Of a stretch of DNA of 64,000 bases, positions 808 to 61,125 are shown one piece after another. Below the pieces are notes generated by a model, which was not told the DNA's origin, searched no databases, and saw only the letters and a program-made list of their open reading frames with translations. Position 1 is the first letter of the stretch; every line of letters starts with the position of its first letter. The stretch covers positions 2,093-66,092 of the forward strand of contig CAZWZQ010000012.1 in the NCBI GenBank assembly GCA_964638955.1, given 5' to 3'. A program made the position numbers and the translations under genes. The stretch is from an uncultured Rikenellaceae bacterium (GTDB taxonomy: Bacteria > Bacteroidota > Bacteroidia > Bacteroidales > VadinHA17).

Positions 808-3800
808 TCTGAAGTTCATAAGGAATCTGTCTATTAAGAATAAAATAACGCTGATTATTTTATTTATAGCATTTACAGTGATTACTGTCGGTTTTATTTT
901 AATCTCAGTCTGGGATACTAAAAGGCTGAAAACTGAAATTGAATCTCAATTATCCCTTAATGCAAAATTAGTTGGTGATTACTGCATTGTTCCTCTCGTT
1001 TTTACTGATAATCAGCAGGCATCCATGGCATTATCACGTTTGAAATTTGTTGAATCTGTAGAAGAAGGATACCTCCTCGACGAATATGGATCTGTTTTTT
1101 CTGTTTACCCTGATTCAATTGAAACAGACTCGGCTGATATTCCGGCAGAAAGCAAAAAAGCTGTTTTCAGGGACAATTATTTTTATATAACTGAACCTGT
1201 AAGTTTTGAAGGCCGTAATATAGGGACACTTGTACTTAAAGCAAATTCAAACATGATGAGAGAACAGAATCAAAAGCTCGTGATAATAATGTCATCCGTC
1301 TTTTTTCTTATGCTTGTTATCTCGTTTTTTCTTGCCTCCAGATTACGGAAACTAATTACAACTCCCATTTTAAAGCTGGCAGAAACAACTGCTTCAATTT
1401 CGAAAAATCAGGATTTTACTGTCCGGCTTGAGCAATATGGAACTGATGAAGTGGGAATTCTGTACCAGCAGTTTAATAACTTTCTGTCACAGATTTTGAA
1501 GCGTCAGCAAGAAAGGGACGAAGCTGAAAAGGAGATCGCATTCCTTGCCCAGGTACTGAAAAACATCAATGAATTTGTGAGTATTACAGACCTGGAGAAT
1601 AATATAATTTTTGTAAACCAGGCATGGTCGAAAGTGTTCGGATATACACAGGAAGAGGCGGTTGGTAAAAACATTAAAATGATTGTTTCACATGACAATC
1701 CACCGGAGCTTGTGGCGGATATACTTTCGGCCACCCTAAAAGGCGGCTGGCAGGGGGAGGTGATGAACAGGAAAAAAGACGGTTCCGAGTTTCCGGTAAT
1801 GCTCTTTACTACAATTATTTATGATAATTCCAACAAGCCAAAATCCCTTGTAGGTATCAGTTCAGATATAACCGAGCGTAAAAAGATTGAGAAAGAACTG
1901 AATGAGCATCGCAAACATCTTGAGAAATTGGTAAGTGAACGAACCGAGAAGCTCAAAATTGCCATGGCGGAGACACAGGATCTTTATGATAATGCTCCCT
2001 GCGGCTATCATTCACTTGATAAAGACGGGATAATTATCCGTATAAACAATACAGAACTTAAATGGCTTGGCTACACTCGAGAGGAAGTAATTAATAAGAT
2101 GGGGACAGCGGATTTTATTACACCGGAAAGCAAAGAACTGTTTAAAAAAGTGTTCCCGGAATTCATAAAGAGCGGTGCTGCCAATAATGTGGAATATGAA
2201 TACATACGTAAAGACGGAACAACCTTTTTTGGTTCACTTAATGCAACCTCAGTTCTTGATCAGGAGGGGAATTTTTTGATGAGCCGTTCTACATTATTTG
2301 ATATTACAGATCGTAAGCGTATTGAGGTTGCTCTGAACAAAGCAACTGAAGAAGCTGAAAAAGCAAACAAAGCAAAAAGTGAATTTCTTGCCAATATGAG
2401 TCATGAGATACGTACTCCGATGAATGCAGTTCTGGGTTATACTGAACTATTAAGCTCTTTGATTACTGAACAAACTCAGAAGAATTATATTGAATCAATA
2501 GAATCGAGCGGTCGCAGTCTTTTAATACTGATAAATGATATTCTCGACCTATCAAAAATTGAATCCGGAAAACTTGAACTGCAATATGACTTTGTAGATT
2601 CAAATTTTTTCTTTAAAGAATTCGAAAGGATATTTGCGTTAAAAGCCGCCGAAAAAGGAATAGAGTTAATTGTTGATATCAAATCGGGAACCCCTGCCGG
2701 GATATATATTGATGAACCCAGGCTTCGCCAGATAGTTTTCAACCTCATTGGTAACGCAATTAAATTTACTAATCAGGGCTATGTAAAGCTAAAAGTAAAT
2801 ACTGAGAACTTACAGGTTGTTTCTTACAAAAAAGAAAAGAATGAAGAATTTTTAGATTTATTGATTGAAGTTGAAGATACCGGTATTGGGATATCTAAAG
2901 AAATAATGGAAGAGATCTTTGATCCTTTTATCCAGGCCAGAGACCAAAAAAACATCGGTGGAACAGGTCTGGGACTTGCAATAACCCGCCGGCTTACCAC
3001 TCTTATGAACGGTACCATAAGTCTTAAATCTGAGATGGGAAAAGGTAGCACTTTCACGATAAAGATACCCGATATAGCTTTTAAAAGAGATTTTATAAGC
3101 TCTAAAATAACTGTTCAGATAGACCCTTCCGATATAATATTTGAATCAGCGACAATTCTTGTTGTCGACGATGTTGAACATAACATAAGCTTTATCAGAG
3201 ATACCCTGAAGAATACAAACATAACAGTTGTAGAAGCTGAAGAAGGATTTAAAGCTTTTGACCTGGCAAAAAAAATAATTCCGGATCTGATAATAACTGA
3301 TATCAGGATGCCGAATATGGACGGTTTTGAACTATTAAACAGGCTTAAAGCAATTAAAAAACTTAAAGATATTCCGGTACTGGCATATTCAGCATCGGTT
3401 TTGAAGGATCAGAAAGAAAGGATTCATAATAGTCCATTTTCAGGATTGCTAACAAAGCCTTTAAACATTACAGAGCTTTACCTGGAATTAATAAATCATT
3501 TGCCATATAAGGAGGTCCTGAAAGATAAGCCTGATCTGGAGTCAAAAGATGATGGAAGTGATATTGCAGATCTGCCGGGCCTGATAAGATCCCTTGAGTC
3601 AGAATTCACGAAAACCTGGAAGAGCTTTGAACTAAGACAACCTATCAGCGAAATAAAAAAATTCGGGGAAGAACTGGTTAAACTTGGAACAGATCATAAT
3701 TCGGCGTTGATAATTAAATACGGAAAGGAATTACAAACTGCCGCAGAAAGCTTCAACATTGAGGCAATACTGATGCTTTTAAAACAATACTCTGCACATA

Positions 3801-3835: not shown

Positions 3836-5023
3836 ATGGATACTTACAATAATCCCACACATGTTCCTGTCATTCTGATTGTTGACGATAATCCTCAGAA
3901 CCTGCAGATCCTGGGTAAGCAGCTTCAGGAACAGAATTATGATATTGAATTCGCGATCAATGGACCCGCTGCCCTTGAATGGATTGATATAAAACAGTTC
4001 GACTTAATTTTGCTTGATATTAATATGCCGGAAATGTCAGGTTTTGATGTCTGTAAGAAAATCCGTTCAAATCAGGATATGAATAATGTTCCCATAATAT
4101 TTTTATCGGCCGAAACTGAAAGGGAAAGCATTCTCAGGGGATTTGAACTGGGTGCCCAGGATTATATTACAAAACCTTTCGACAGCAGGGAACTTATTGT
4201 AAGAGTCAAAACGCATATTACACTTAAAGAAACACTCGAAGAGCTTGTAAATCTTAACAGATCGCTTGAGGAAAGAGTTCTTGAAAGAACTAATCAGCTT
4301 AAAGAAGCAAATGATAAACTTGAAGCAATTAACAACAAATTGATCGATCTGGACATGGCGAAAACGGAATTTTTAAGTCTTATAAGTCACGAAATCCGGA
4401 CGCCTCTGAATGGAATTATAGGACCCTTGGAACTGCTCAAAGGACCGATAAATACCAGTGAAATTAGTAATCTGGTCGGAATGCTTGACACTTCTGTCAA
4501 AAGGCTTGAACGCTTTTCACTTGATGCCTTGCTGATAACCAGGCTCAAAACAAAACAAGCAGAAATCAAGAAGGAAAGTATTTCACTTTCAAAACTATTT
4601 AATGAGGTATTGAATGAAAGAAAAGAAGAAATTAAGTTAAAAGGAATAAAAGTCAACATGGAGTTTGACCTGAAGCACGATTTTATTCTTGGCGAGACAG
4701 AACTGGTAAAAAAATCAATCATTAATATTCTGGATAATTCAATCTTTTACTCTCCTGAAAAAGGATCTGTCACAATAAGAACTTATTTAGCTGATGATTT
4801 CAATGTTTTTGAACTTTGTGACCGGGGAAGCGGTTTTACCCCTGAGACAAAAGAACATCTGACTGAATTGTTTACCTATGCTGATAAATTCAGAGACAAT
4901 AGTAAAGGAATCGGATTGCCGATTGTTAAAATGATTATGGAGTCGCACGGAGGAGACATTATACTTGATAACCATCCTGACGGTGGAGCACTGGTGAAGC
5001 TTAAATTTTTAATGAATACTTAA
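3836..5023 (+). CDS. REC-HisKA-HATPase hybrid kinase / response regulator
   Basis: N-terminal REC (IVDDNP, LLDINMP, KPF), H-box SHEIRTPLN, DRGSGF, GIGLPIV. Confidence 0.9.
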   Translation: MDTYNNPTHVPVILIVDDNPQNLQILGKQLQEQNYDIEFAINGPAALEWIDIKQFDLILLDINMPEMSGFDVCKKIRSNQDMNNVPIIFLSAETERESILRGFELGAQDYITKPFDSRELIVRVKTHITLKETLEELVNLNRSLEERVLERTNQLKEANDKLEAINNKLIDLDMAKTEFLSLISHEIRTPLNGIIGPLELLKGPINTSEISNLVGMLDTSVKRLERFSLDALLITRLKTKQAEIKKESISLSKLFNEVLNERKEEIKLKGIKVNMEFDLKHDFILGETELVKKSIINILDNSIFYSPEKGSVTIRTYLADDFNVFELCDRGSGFTPETKEHLTELFTYADKFRDNSKGIGLPIVKMIMESHGGDIILDNHPDGGALVKLKFLMNT

Positions 5024-6375: not shown

Positions 6376-7551
6376 ATGAAAAGTCAGGATGATCAATTGA
6401 AAAGGAAACTTAAAGAGCAGGCAATAGCTGAGGCTACATTACGTCTTAGTGAAGAGAAATACCGTTTCCTGTTTGAGCGGAATCCTGCATCAATGCTGAT
6501 CTATGACCGTAGTACTCTGGCTCTGTTGGCTGTAAATGAGGCATTTCTGAAACAGTATGGATATTCAAATGAAGAAGCATTGTCGTTATCTCTTCCCGAT
6601 TTATATCCCATGGAAGAGAAAGCATCTATTGTTGAACTTGTTGAAAAAATCAAAGAGCACTCCAGTGCAGGTGAATGGCATCACATTAAAAAAGATGGTT
6701 CGATAATAACCATAATAGCAAATTCTAACGATCTGGTTTATCATGGGAAAAAAGCCCGTATTGCTGTCGTAACAGATATTACAGACCGAAAGAAAGCCGA
6801 GGAGGAAATAAAACGGTTGAATCAGGCTCTGGAAGAACGTGTTGCAGAAAGGACAGCCCAACTGATCTCAATAAACAAGGAGCTCGAATCTTACAGTTAC
6901 TCTATTTCACATGATCTGAGAGCCCCTTTAAGGGCAATTCACGGTTTCTCCCAAATCCTTTCAGTCCGGCACAGATTATCACTGAATATGGAAGGACAAC
7001 AGTATATTGATTATATTGTTGAAGCCAGTGTCAGAATGGAACAGCTTATTAACGACCTGCTTGATTATTCCAGGCTCGGACGAAAATCTCTTAAAATACG
7101 CCCGGTTTCGCTTTCTGCCCTGCTTGACAGCATTTACAGCGATTTTAGCAAAAAACTGGAAGAGATTGATGCTAAGCTGTTTATAGAAAACGAATTGCCG
7201 GAAATCCTCGGAGATGATTCCCTGCTCCGTCAGATATTCATTAACCTGATCGAAAACTCCATTACCTACAGACGGACCGGAATTCAATTAGTGATAAAAA
7301 TCGGATGCTCCGGGAATTCTGATAGATATATTGTCTCAATCTCAGATAACGGGATAGGTATTCCTGAGGAGCACTGGGAGAAGATATTTGATATCTTCCA
7401 GCGACTTCATAGCGAAGAAAAATATCCCGGAACAGGAATAGGTTTGGCGACAGTAAAAAAAGCCGTCACTATGCTCAATGGGAAAGTCTGGGTTAATTCC
7501 ATCATCGGCGAAGGAAGTACTTTTTATATCCAGCTACCTGCTAATTTATAA
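6376..7551 (+). CDS. Cytoplasmic PAS histidine kinase (Cph1-like kinase core)
   Basis: One PAS, H-box SISHDLRAPLRAI, IFINLIENSI, DNGIGI, FQRLHS, GTGIGL. Confidence 0.88.
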   Translation: MKSQDDQLKRKLKEQAIAEATLRLSEEKYRFLFERNPASMLIYDRSTLALLAVNEAFLKQYGYSNEEALSLSLPDLYPMEEKASIVELVEKIKEHSSAGEWHHIKKDGSIITIIANSNDLVYHGKKARIAVVTDITDRKKAEEEIKRLNQALEERVAERTAQLISINKELESYSYSISHDLRAPLRAIHGFSQILSVRHRLSLNMEGQQYIDYIVEASVRMEQLINDLLDYSRLGRKSLKIRPVSLSALLDSIYSDFSKKLEEIDAKLFIENELPEILGDDSLLRQIFINLIENSITYRRTGIQLVIKIGCSGNSDRYIVSISDNGIGIPEEHWEKIFDIFQRLHSEEKYPGTGIGLATVKKAVTMLNGKVWVNSIIGEGSTFYIQLPANL

Positions 7552-17346: not shown

Positions 17347-17685
17347 TTATCCTCTTAAATTTTTTATCTCTCTTATATCAAAGGTTCCGTACTTCCTGTA
17401 TATCCTTATTATAACAGACATTATCATTGCTGTAGTGGCAAGTCCGATAACAATTGCCGTCAAAACCATTGCCTGGGGCAAAGGATCAACATATGTTTTG
17501 ACCGGATCGGCAGGATCAACTATTGGGGCCACACCACCTTCGACAAATCCAATAAGTGCAAAAAACAGGAAGATGCTGAATTCCATTATTGATAGTGAAA
17601 TAGCAATCTTGACCAGGTTTCTTCTGGTTATCACTCCGTAGAGTCCCACAAGAAATAATATAAAGCACAATAAGTAAGGTATCAT
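17347..17685 (-). CDS. mnhC: Mrp antiporter subunit C
   Basis: NLVKIAI, DPLPQAMVLTAIVIGLA. Confidence 0.92.
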   Translation of the reverse strand: MIPYLLCFILFLVGLYGVITRRNLVKIAISLSIMEFSIFLFFALIGFVEGGVAPIVDPADPVKTYVDPLPQAMVLTAIVIGLATTAMIMSVIIRIYRKYGTFDIREIKNLRG

Positions 17686-18119
17686 TCCGACATTTCTTCT
17701 TTAAATATTACCAGCGCTAAAAATATTGAAAGTATCGAAGCGGCTACCTCAATACCTATAAATATATTATAAAGGGGCAGCATTCCGGCACTTACAAGTT
17801 CACCAGGGGTTCCTTTCGGGAGCCAGTTTAGGAAAAAGATCTTTGCCCCGAAGAGCATACCGGAAACAGCCAGGAAAACAGCAACAAGAATAGCAAGATT
17901 CTCATAGATCGTAGAGCCAGTCTCTTCTTTCGTCAGCTTCATGAAGTCGCTTCCGTTGGCAAGGATCAGTAGTATGAAAGATCCCGCTATAAGAACACCA
18001 CCGGCAAAGCCGCCACCCGGTGTAAGATGACCATGTATTATAACATATATACCGTAAAGAAATATCAGCCCTGCAATGAGCTGTGTCGTTTTCTTTACTA
18101 TGAGCGTCATACCTTTCAT
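17682..18119 (-). CDS. mnhB: Mrp antiporter subunit B
   Basis: HGHLTPGGGFAGG. Confidence 0.9.
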   Translation of the reverse strand: MKGMTLIVKKTTQLIAGLIFLYGIYVIIHGHLTPGGGFAGGVLIAGSFILLILANGSDFMKLTKEETGSTIYENLAILVAVFLAVSGMLFGAKIFFLNWLPKGTPGELVSAGMLPLYNIFIGIEVAASILSIFLALVIFKEEMSE

Positions 18120-18143
18120 TTATTCAATTGATTTAAGAACAAG

Positions 18144-18640
18144 GATTAACGATTTTTGATTTTTGAAGTTTGACTTATATTTTAATAGATAGATTCTTTT
18201 GAGCTGTTTCTGCACTTTTTACAAAAATTGAAATAAGTTCATTGTTTTCATTTAACGCTATCTTGATTTTCTCTTCCGATTTATAAAGCCCTGAACGAAA
18301 AATAATCTTAAGACAAACATAGCTTTCTCTAAGTTCTTTAAGTACTATTTTAATTTTGTGAATGAAATCTTTTCTGGATTCTCCACTTTGTGCTTCTCCA
18401 TAATTTAACGCTGGAGATGTTCCAGAACGTATTAATTGTCCGGCAAGATGATTTGAAGCTCTTGTATCAGGCATATTTTCACATATTTCAATAATCATCA
18501 CCGCAAAATTTATTAATCGTTCCTCAAGATCATGTTTATTCATCTTATTAATAGTCATACAAATATTATTACAAACTCACTTCTTAAATCATAAATCGTT
18601 AATCATAAATCATAAATCGTTAATCATCATTCATCATTCA
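18144..18640. mobile_element. Cassette of a four-helix-bundle gene between inverted heptamer tandem arrays, inserted in the mrp genes
   Basis: Left array 18144-18178 (GATTAAC GATTTTT GATTTTT...) and right array 18585-18640 (8 heptamers, with a 21-bp unit repeated twice) are inverted, 18/19 identical. Mobility is inferred. Confidence 0.6.
18175..18558 (-). CDS. Four-helix-bundle protein (23S rRNA IVS / S23 family)
   Basis: LEERLINFA, QLIRSGTSPALNYGEA, DFIHKIKIVLKELRES, ENNELISIF. Confidence 0.9.
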   Translation of the reverse strand: MTINKMNKHDLEERLINFAVMIIEICENMPDTRASNHLAGQLIRSGTSPALNYGEAQSGESRKDFIHKIKIVLKELRESYVCLKIIFRSGLYKSEEKIKIALNENNELISIFVKSAETAQKNLSIKI

Positions 18641-18650
18641 AAAAAGACCA

Positions 18651-19178
18651 TTATTTTTTCCCTTTGATTCTTAATATTGTAAGAACACCCAGTACAGCAG
18701 TAATAAGCACTGTTGCTTCGCCCAGTGTATCGTATCCTCTGAAGTCAAAGATAACACCCGTAACAAGGTTGGCACTTCCTGTCTTCGCAGTTGCCCCCTC
18801 AATATAATGGGCAGCCATGCGAAGAGTACCATGTCCGAAAGCATCAAGAGTCTCTATTGAAATTTTAAAAAAGTAAAACAATACCACAACCAGCAATATA
18901 GCTGTAACTGATGACACATATCCCTGTGCATCAGGCTTTGAAAACAATTCTTCCCTGGAGCTGTCAAGTACAACAGCCACCATTATGATTAGAGAGATTG
19001 TTTCAACAACTATCTGGACAATTGCCAGGTCGGGAGCCTTAAGAAGAAGGAAACAAATCACAAGTCCATAGCCTACAATGCCGCATGCAATAACCGCTGA
19101 AAGCAGGTCTTTTGCATGGATTGCATATAATGCCCCAAGGATCATCAGTCCTGTTATTATGGATATGGTAATTTCCAT
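18651..19178 (-). CDS. DUF4040 + MnhB-N membrane subunit (split MrpA C-terminus; MbhD/E-like)
   Basis: [15 protein letters not shown] and [19 protein letters not shown]. Confidence 0.85.
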
Positions 19179-60297: not shown

Positions 60298-60428
60298 GAT
60301 ATTATTCTTATAATATATCAAATCTAAAAAATAATCTTTACAACGACCATCTTTAACTTATCTTTTATTAATTATTCTTTCCAAATAACTAATAACCAAG
60401 AACTAATTACTAATTACAATAATCCCCT

Positions 60429-61069: not shown

Positions 61070-61125
61070 AATGGTGTAATGGTACAATGGTATAATGGTT
61101 CGACGGTGTTGAGGTATTGGAGCGT
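61070..61125. repeat. Degenerate octamer tandem array
   Basis: AATGGTGT AATGGTAC AATGGTAT AATGGTTC GACGGTGT TGAGGTAT... Confidence 0.65.

Follow-up and report, generated by a model that had tools for sequence, protein, structure and literature searches.

A four-helix-bundle gene between inverted heptamer arrays in a Bacteroidales operon: a candidate transposase-less cassette of the intervening-sequence type

Why a gene for a small four-helix-bundle protein should stand, enclosed by inverted heptamer arrays, within an otherwise compact operon is the question raised by one locus in a 64,000-nt stretch of DNA from an uncultured Rikenellaceae bacterium, the whole of which is called the window here. 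The host operon comprised 14 genes on the minus strand and was of the hydrogenase/Mrp-type antiporter kind. According to profile matches, the host gene upstream of the locus encoded an MbhD/MbhE-type DUF4040 membrane subunit of 175 aa (18651-19178, minus strand; PF13244 64.4 bits, PF20501 37.9 bits, NF009159 82 bits), and the host gene downstream an MnhB-type subunit of 145 aa (17682-18119, minus strand; PF04039 83.7 bits, NF006248 97 bits). The spacer between the two, 531 nt in length (18120-18650, minus strand), was filled entirely by the cassette, whereas the remaining genes of the operon overlapped or nearly abutted. This bears out an earlier note on the sequence, in which the gene had been described as interrupting a tightly coupled DUF4040-mnhB junction. 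The cargo gene itself (18175-18558, minus strand) encoded a protein of 127 aa, and inspection by eye found no exact match to the Bacteroidota-type -7 promoter box (TAnnTTTG) at a useful distance upstream of it.

The cargo gene was enclosed by two arms of tandem repeats. The 5′ arm (18579-18641, minus strand) consisted of about eight degenerate heptamers (GAWTNAT), which read in phase on the coding strand, here the minus strand, as GAATGAT GAATGAT GATTAAC GATTTAT GATTTAT GATTAAC GATTTAT GATTTAA, and its sense strand was purine-rich. The 3′ arm (18128-18169, minus strand) was pyrimidine-rich on the sense strand and had about five degenerate heptamers, AAATCAA AAATCGT TAATCCT TGTTCTT AAATCAA on the coding strand. 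Direct reading of the window placed the 19-mer AAATCATAAATCGTTAATC twice within the 5′ arm, at 18586-18604 and 18607-18625, and found GATTAACGATTTTTGATTT, at 18144-18162, to be its reverse complement at 18 of 19 positions. A pattern search allowing up to two mismatches returned these three sites and no others in the 64 kb, compared to 0.00 expected from 100 dinucleotide shuffles, so that the inverted repeat reported earlier around the ORF was confirmed in both ways. The repeat search also recovered a 21-nt unit present twice in the 5′ arm (18582-18623) and inverted arms of up to 58 nt (18128-18185 with 18584-18641, 72% match), with a 40-nt core matching at 80%, while TRF reported an array of period 7 and 6.1 copies at C12:20677-20719, equivalent to 18585-18627 of the window. 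The stop codon of the DUF4040 gene lay about 10 nt ahead of the outer end of the 5′ arm, and the ATG of the MnhB gene about 8 nt past the outer end of the 3′ arm. In the predicted minimum free energy fold of a 551-nt transcript segment the two arms were paired, in line with the earlier proposal that the flanks could form a stem looping out the ORF, with a modest fold z-score of -1.95.

The ORF matched TIGR02436 with 76.2 bits (cut-off 24) and PF05635 with 48.2 bits (cut-off 33.8). The motif of the family, GxxRxxxSxxxNxxE (PMC3936711), read QxxRxxxSxxxNxxE in the 127-aa protein, with Q rather than G at the first position, and the residues concerned (Q41, R44, S48, N52, and E55) were invariant among seven paralogues of the source genome (G000). 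The protein had a pI of 8.9, and its nearest solved structure was PDB 2rld (E 5.6e-12); from its likeness to solved relatives we infer a four-helix-bundle, pentamer-forming fold. Comparison with the orthologue in the related genome G010 gave a pN of 0.10 and a pS of 0.72, and this codon comparison showed the cargo ORF to be under purifying selection.

An orthologue of MnhB was found in 22 of 61 related genomes, and the DUF4040-MnhB spacer was measured in 21 loci. The cassette occurred at the junction in two of them only, those of G000 and G010. The junction was tight in five loci (overlap or 0-13 nt, including stop/start overlap), and 14 had other short spacers of 40-170 nt, with unrelated heptamer arrays, GC-rich hairpins, or a GGATTGCTTCGTCGTC...CGCAATGACGG element. 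The comparison of filled and empty sites thus showed that the cassette had been inserted where the stop of one operon gene meets the start of the next. The gene had been called an insert before, and its absence from 19 of the 21 loci runs counter to one part of the contrary case set out with that proposal, namely that it is fixed at this position in all relatives. Across the genus as sampled here, small insertions recur at the DUF4040-MnhB junction, which is a hot spot for them. The GGATTGCTTCGTCGTC...CGCAATGACGG repeat was present in two copies in L014 and in one copy in L017, and GC-rich hairpins of the CCCCCTTGGGGG type occupied the spacer in L016, L024, L028, and L029. It is not claimed that the spacers of relatives are remnants of the window's cassette; in 56 tests, a search for arm remnants, itself weak, picked out only L033 (p 0.01) and some borderline spacers.

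When the flanking proteins were placed on a tree (1096 columns), every cassette-bearing locus had a cassette-free sister, with support of 99 and 100, and therefore at least two gains or losses are needed. Synonymous sites were saturated between G000 and G010, with a pS of 0.72 in the cassette and of 0.73 and 0.83 in its flanks. The presence of the cassette at this junction is consequently old, and owing to the same saturation the data are compatible both with a single early gain followed by several losses and with two independent gains.

Copies of the same lineage occurred at other loci, where ORF and arms were again found together, consistent with the earlier suggestion that the cassette may spread. 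G029, a genome of the same genus, carried a copy with 81% protein identity and the same arms (GAACAAGGATTAACGATT / AATCGTTAATCCTTGTTC), 75 kb from its own MnhB junction, which was empty. This copy lay at the 3′ end of an unrelated gene, the stop codon of which fell within the arm. At L038/L155 of G029 (C1, ~575-578 kb) the unit of the 5′ arm was 57 nt long, was repeated four times and started in the last codons of an ASPIC/UnbV-like gene; there, a segment made up of the host tail, the arm and the 3′ end of the ORF was tandemly repeated at least two times downstream of the intact cassette. G060, which belongs to another family, had two copies with 92-96% nucleotide identity at unrelated loci (L148 and L149), and the similarity was bounded by TGAATAWCGAA...TTCGATATTCA, the tips of the terminal inverted repeat. 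One of the two sat between gldA-like and gldF-like genes, a site that was empty in three congeners (G062, G063, and G064) with flanks 91-95% identical. The empty site was a (GTTATAT)2-5 array, which in G060 was split around the insert. The insert brought 29 + 132 nt of additional sequence; a search for a donor of the 132 nt beside it found none, and neither target-site duplication nor direct repeat was evident at the three filled sites. As traced across these loci, ORF and arms were shown to have shared one fate in inheritance, in copying to other sites and in loss.

Two copies of this kind had been altered. L149 (G060:C71) was decaying, the 3′ third of its ORF having been lost by deletion between AAATTATTCA microhomologies, and had gained a 38-nt hairpin ahead of its 3′ arm. 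In L153 (G045:C231), a GC-rich hairpin, CCCTGCCTGACGGTAGGCAGGG, had been inserted at 250-275 in the 3′ arm of a same-lineage cassette, one element nested in another.

Set beside insertion sequences and MITEs, the cassette had terminal inverted repeats, near-identical copies at unrelated loci, and empty sites in relatives, as found in G060 and at the window junction. A transposase and a target duplication were both lacking, and the sole ORF encoded the four-helix-bundle protein, which agrees with the description of the cassette as transposase-free in the earlier note.

The source genome had 12 TIGR02436 genes, with a mutual identity of only 13-56%. In almost every case a heptamer or octamer particular to the paralogue lay upstream, with its reverse complement downstream, and the fully flanked copies reached an inverted-complementarity score of 17-20, compared to a control mean of 7.6. 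A catalogue of the four-helix-bundle genes and their flanks had been proposed as a check of the earlier note, with copies devoid of inverted flanks as the outcome that would speak against it, yet nearly all of the 12 genes proved to be armed with inverted arrays of their own. Two paralogues were interrupted (G000:C31:36402-36728 and G000:C112:3304-3432), one having an in-frame TGA and the other being truncated with a TAA; both had a heptamer array upstream, and the complement of that of the C31 copy was found downstream, ahead of the contig end. A 7-kb contig, G000:C83, carried three divergent four-helix-bundle genes (34-354, 4477-4797, and 6708-7028).

Beyond this genome, one paralogue was searched against species-representative genomes and gave 80 loci from more than 15 phyla, a sample biased toward one subfamily near the family consensus because a single paralogue served as the query. 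Flanks were compared by a complementarity score in place of RNAduplex energies, by which cassettes and control ORFs could not be distinguished, the arms being AT-rich and the control flanks coding. The inverted-flank score was at least 12 in 66 of the 80 homologues and in 1% of 291 shifted controls, the armed fraction being the figure for one subfamily and not for all PF05635 genes. The period of the arms was 7 in 41 of the armed homologues and 8 in 22, the median arm was 30 nt long and about 29 nt from the ORF on each side, and the 5′ arm was purine-rich in 65 of the 66. On a tree of 70 homologue proteins, the period required one change, compared to a shuffled mean of 16.5 and with none of 500 shuffles as low, while host phylum required 24 changes. 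The tree thus showed repeat period to be a property of the protein clade and not of the host. The idea that the heptamer period is a device for placing stops in three frames was dropped, the octamer class (AAGGCACA) being without stops.

Short repeats of this kind were also abundant apart from any gene of the family. TRF detected 263 short tandem arrays in the source genome (18 in the shuffled genome), 125 of which were heptamers. There were 193 arrays of period 7 or 8, with a modal copy number of 4, and 164 of them lay outside ORFs although 91% of the genome was coding. Some 180 arrays of 7 or 8 nt were orphans and mostly intergenic, for example those in the window at 60384-60422 (AATAACT-type, 5.7 copies) and at 61070-61099 (AATGGTAT-type, 3.8 copies). 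An exact unit was shared between orphan array and resident cassette arm in 45 of 181 cases, compared to 5.5 expected; exact-unit matching replaced single-linkage clustering of the units (≤1 mismatch, all rotations), which was dropped as too permissive because shuffled units clustered as well. The orphan arrays had no sense-strand polarity (20 purine-rich vs. 17 pyrimidine-rich), and 52 of them were located at contig ends and therefore probably break the assembly. Octamer families recurred, often side by side, with 20 arrays of the ATCATGCA type and 19 of the AATGGTAT type.

Two of the array-rich sites adjoined genes for stable RNAs. At L008 (G000:C70), a tRNA-Leu(taa) gene (1988-2072) stood between an octamer array (GCATGATC-type) and a hairpin of inverted heptamer arrays (GAGTGAT.../...CTCACTC) that enclosed no gene and lay directly upstream of a further four-helix-bundle gene. 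At G000:C21:707-778, arrays of AAGTCAATA (3.4 copies) and ACTTTCAG (4.5 copies) lay in the spacer directly preceding the 23S rRNA gene (833-3743), which was itself uninterrupted, with 2911 nt for 2925 model positions and no intervening sequence (IVS).

The explanation that we regard as reasonably probable is a minimal, transposase-less cassette of the IVS type, in which a single four-helix-bundle gene is carried between inverted arrays of tandem heptamers that constitute the ends of the unit. Such a cassette would have no promoter of its own and would be transcribed by read-through from the host operon. The arms would pair in the transcript into a long stem, looping out the ORF and bringing the stop and start codons of the host genes within about 20 nt of each other. 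By analogy with the 23S IVS of Coxiella, the stem may be a substrate of the genome's RNase III, the gene for which was recognized with 165.7 bits, and cutting by this enzyme would render the insertion tolerable in an operon, as in rRNA. The protein, being basic and with a presumed pentamer-forming fold related to Avd, would most likely bind its own arms.

How the homologous cassettes were placed bears on whether RNA or DNA is the level at which the arms act. Where the neighbours were co-directional, the cassette gene was co-oriented with them in 56 cases and antisense in none. The distance from the upstream stop to the start of the 5′ arm had a median of 2 nt, and that from the end of the 3′ arm to the downstream ATG a median of 22 nt, the corresponding distances in the window being about 10 and 8 nt. 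The 56:0 orientation and the polarity of the 5′ arm in 65 of 66 homologues point to the transcript, or at the least to expression by read-through, and would be unneeded by a symmetric DNA hairpin, and they weigh against what we judge to be a rather unlikely alternative, that the element works at the DNA level. According to this alternative, the heptamer arrays are hairpin or cruciform ends formed on single-stranded DNA at replication forks, recognized by the four-helix-bundle protein or a host factor or used in template switching; they would be sites of mobility and maintenance, comparable to REP/RAYT hairpins and integron attC, and the RNA stem would be incidental. No recombinase, nuclease, or target duplication was found, and the 29 + 132 nt of extra sequence of unknown origin in the G060 insert implies that this one event was no clean cut-and-paste.

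Other properties of the arms are nevertheless in its favour. The mismatches in the 66 arm pairs comprised 45 G.U and 63 A.C, without an excess of sense-strand wobble, a pattern that complementarity maintained in the DNA explains no less well than selection on RNA. A 35-nt block of the 3′ arm (18128-18162; sense AAATCAAAAATCGTTAATCCTTGTTCTTAAATCAA) was identical in G000, G010, and G029 despite the saturated synonymous sites, and alignment of the three showed one arm to be conserved far past neutral expectation. Pairing alone fails to explain this conservation because no more than the inner 19 of the 35 nt find good pairing in the 5′ arm of the window copy, which suggests sequence-specific recognition rather than mere pairing. 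The DNA-level alternative is also favoured by the homology of the G060 copies, which ends at the outer tips of the terminal inverted repeat, by the (GTTATAT)n array that forms the empty site in three congeners and is split around the insert, by the tandem partial duplications in G029, of the kind that slippage or template switching between arms would give, and by the exact units that orphan arrays share with resident arms at well above the expected number.

It is very improbable that the gene is simply an accessory gene of the Mbh/Mrp-type complex with ordinary vertical inheritance, or else a local regulator, surrounded by the heptamer arrays that are common between genes. Short tandem arrays are indeed far more numerous than in the shuffled genome, mostly intergenic and orphan, unrelated heptamer arrays are found in the same spacer of relatives, and the divergence of the ORF from the G010 copy is about that of the flanking genes. 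The gene is, however, missing from 19 of 21 loci of relatives, in five of which the host genes overlap or nearly do so, the same lineage stands with its arms beside unrelated genes in G029 and G060, and arm-to-arm complementarity, which chance arrays would not have, was seen at nearly all paralogues and in 66 of the 80 homologues from other phyla. The comparison of filled and empty sites has largely refuted this explanation.

A remnant or satellite of a diversity-generating retroelement (DGR), in which an Avd accessory gene would move by reverse transcription of RNA released by RNase III, is scarcely credible, for although PF05635 is homologous to Avd (PMC10053308) and an excised, stem-closed RNA would make a plausible template, no RVT_1 match was found anywhere in the 97.65%-complete assembly while control genomes gave matches, no TR/VR pair was found near the gene, and searches with PADLOC and PHROGs gave no match. 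Of the earlier note's link to DGR Avd, the homology therefore stands, and a reverse transcriptase to go with it was not matched in the genome. On the evidence of the assembly, spread is not by retrotransposition with a resident reverse transcriptase.

With the IVS-type cassette as the preferred explanation, three puzzles that have been separate are joined, i.e., the role of the S23p family, the origin of the IVS in rRNA, and the abundance of intergenic heptamers in sets of about four units. The locus and its relatives, compared at the level of sequence, indicate that these are parts of one single-gene cassette with inverted heptamer ends, which enters gene junctions in sense orientation and is gained, copied and lost. 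A broader and only tentative proposal is that there is one system across phyla, made up of four-helix-bundle genes and heptamer or octamer arrays, in which each protein clade reads its own repeat, possibly with one repeat unit per protomer of the pentamer. The cassette would be looped or cut out via the arm stem in sense transcripts at stop/start junctions, the IVS of 23S rRNA would be copies that landed in rRNA, and intergenic arrays, including those of Xanthomonas, Nostoc, and Geobacter and the ~180 orphans of the source genome, would largely be footprints or trans targets. Should the stem be processed in mRNA, as happens in rRNA, elements of this class would be tolerated by the host through being looped out of the transcript or removed from it, and would then resemble an intron without splicing. 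In the literature searched, a cassette of gene and inverted-heptamer arms was not found as a unit outside rRNA.

Among known systems, the IVS that carry an ORF in 23S rRNA are located in helix 25 or 45, that of Leptospira being an example besides that of Coxiella; they have no transposase and were long ago proposed to be mobile, now or formerly. The Coxiella IVS is 428 nt long and has an ORF of the PF05635 family (S23p), with three tandem heptamers upstream; its terminal stem of 28 bp is cleaved in vitro by RNase III, the ends having been mapped (PMC4990558). The cassette in the window has a protein of the same family, is of similar size (428 nt in Coxiella vs. the 531-nt spacer here), and combines tandem heptamers with terminal inverted repeats able to form a stem, there being no transposase in either; the IVS-like architecture that was first recognized in the window is thus matched in each part. 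It differs in its location, in the spacer of an mRNA operon between protein genes rather than in 23S rRNA, and in its ORF, which is clearly under purifying selection whereas S23p was considered to be decaying (PMC4990558). The cutting by RNase III, mapped in Coxiella, is by contrast a prediction for the window.

The Avd proteins of DGRs share a homologous four-helix-bundle fold, small and basic, and solved relatives form pentamers (PDB 4DWL and 2GSC, cited in PMC10053308). In contrast to DGRs, neither a reverse transcriptase nor template or variable repeats were present in the source genome, and the inverted heptamer arrays that flank the window gene are not a described DGR feature. Intergenic tandem heptamers are known as the GGGNATC repeats of Xanthomonas and Nostoc (PMC4692102) and the four-heptanucleotide elements of Geobacter metallireducens (PMC2700814). 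They have been read as G-quadruplex or regulatory sites, with no associated gene family (PMC4692102, PMC2700814), and 70-75 convergent (inverted) pairs were noted in Xanthomonas (PMC4692102). The period of 7, the preference for about four units, and the position between co-directional genes, where they are transcribed, are common to those arrays and the ones described here, although the latter are AT-rich, unable to form G4, and serve as the arms of a gene cassette.

REPIN/RAYT, IS200/IS605, and integron attC systems likewise have short inverted-repeat structures whose sequence is little conserved from one lineage to another, and occur as single-gene units between host genes along with many gene-less intergenic derivatives. 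The cassette differs from them in having neither HUH transposase nor integrase, in its arms of tandem heptamers on both sides of the gene, and in its cargo, which is always of one protein family. Finally, 23S_rRNA_IVP genes have been reported as CRISPR-associated, e.g., between cmr3 and cmr2 (PMC3936711; PMC10910872), and here too a gene of the PF05635 family is wedged between the genes of an operon. Those reports infer a functional link from adjacency, whereas the range of loci compared in this work suggests that CRISPR-adjacent members are inserts of a kind that lands in many unrelated operons, and family members inside cas, respiratory, or metabolic operons are accordingly not to be taken for functional partners of their neighbours.
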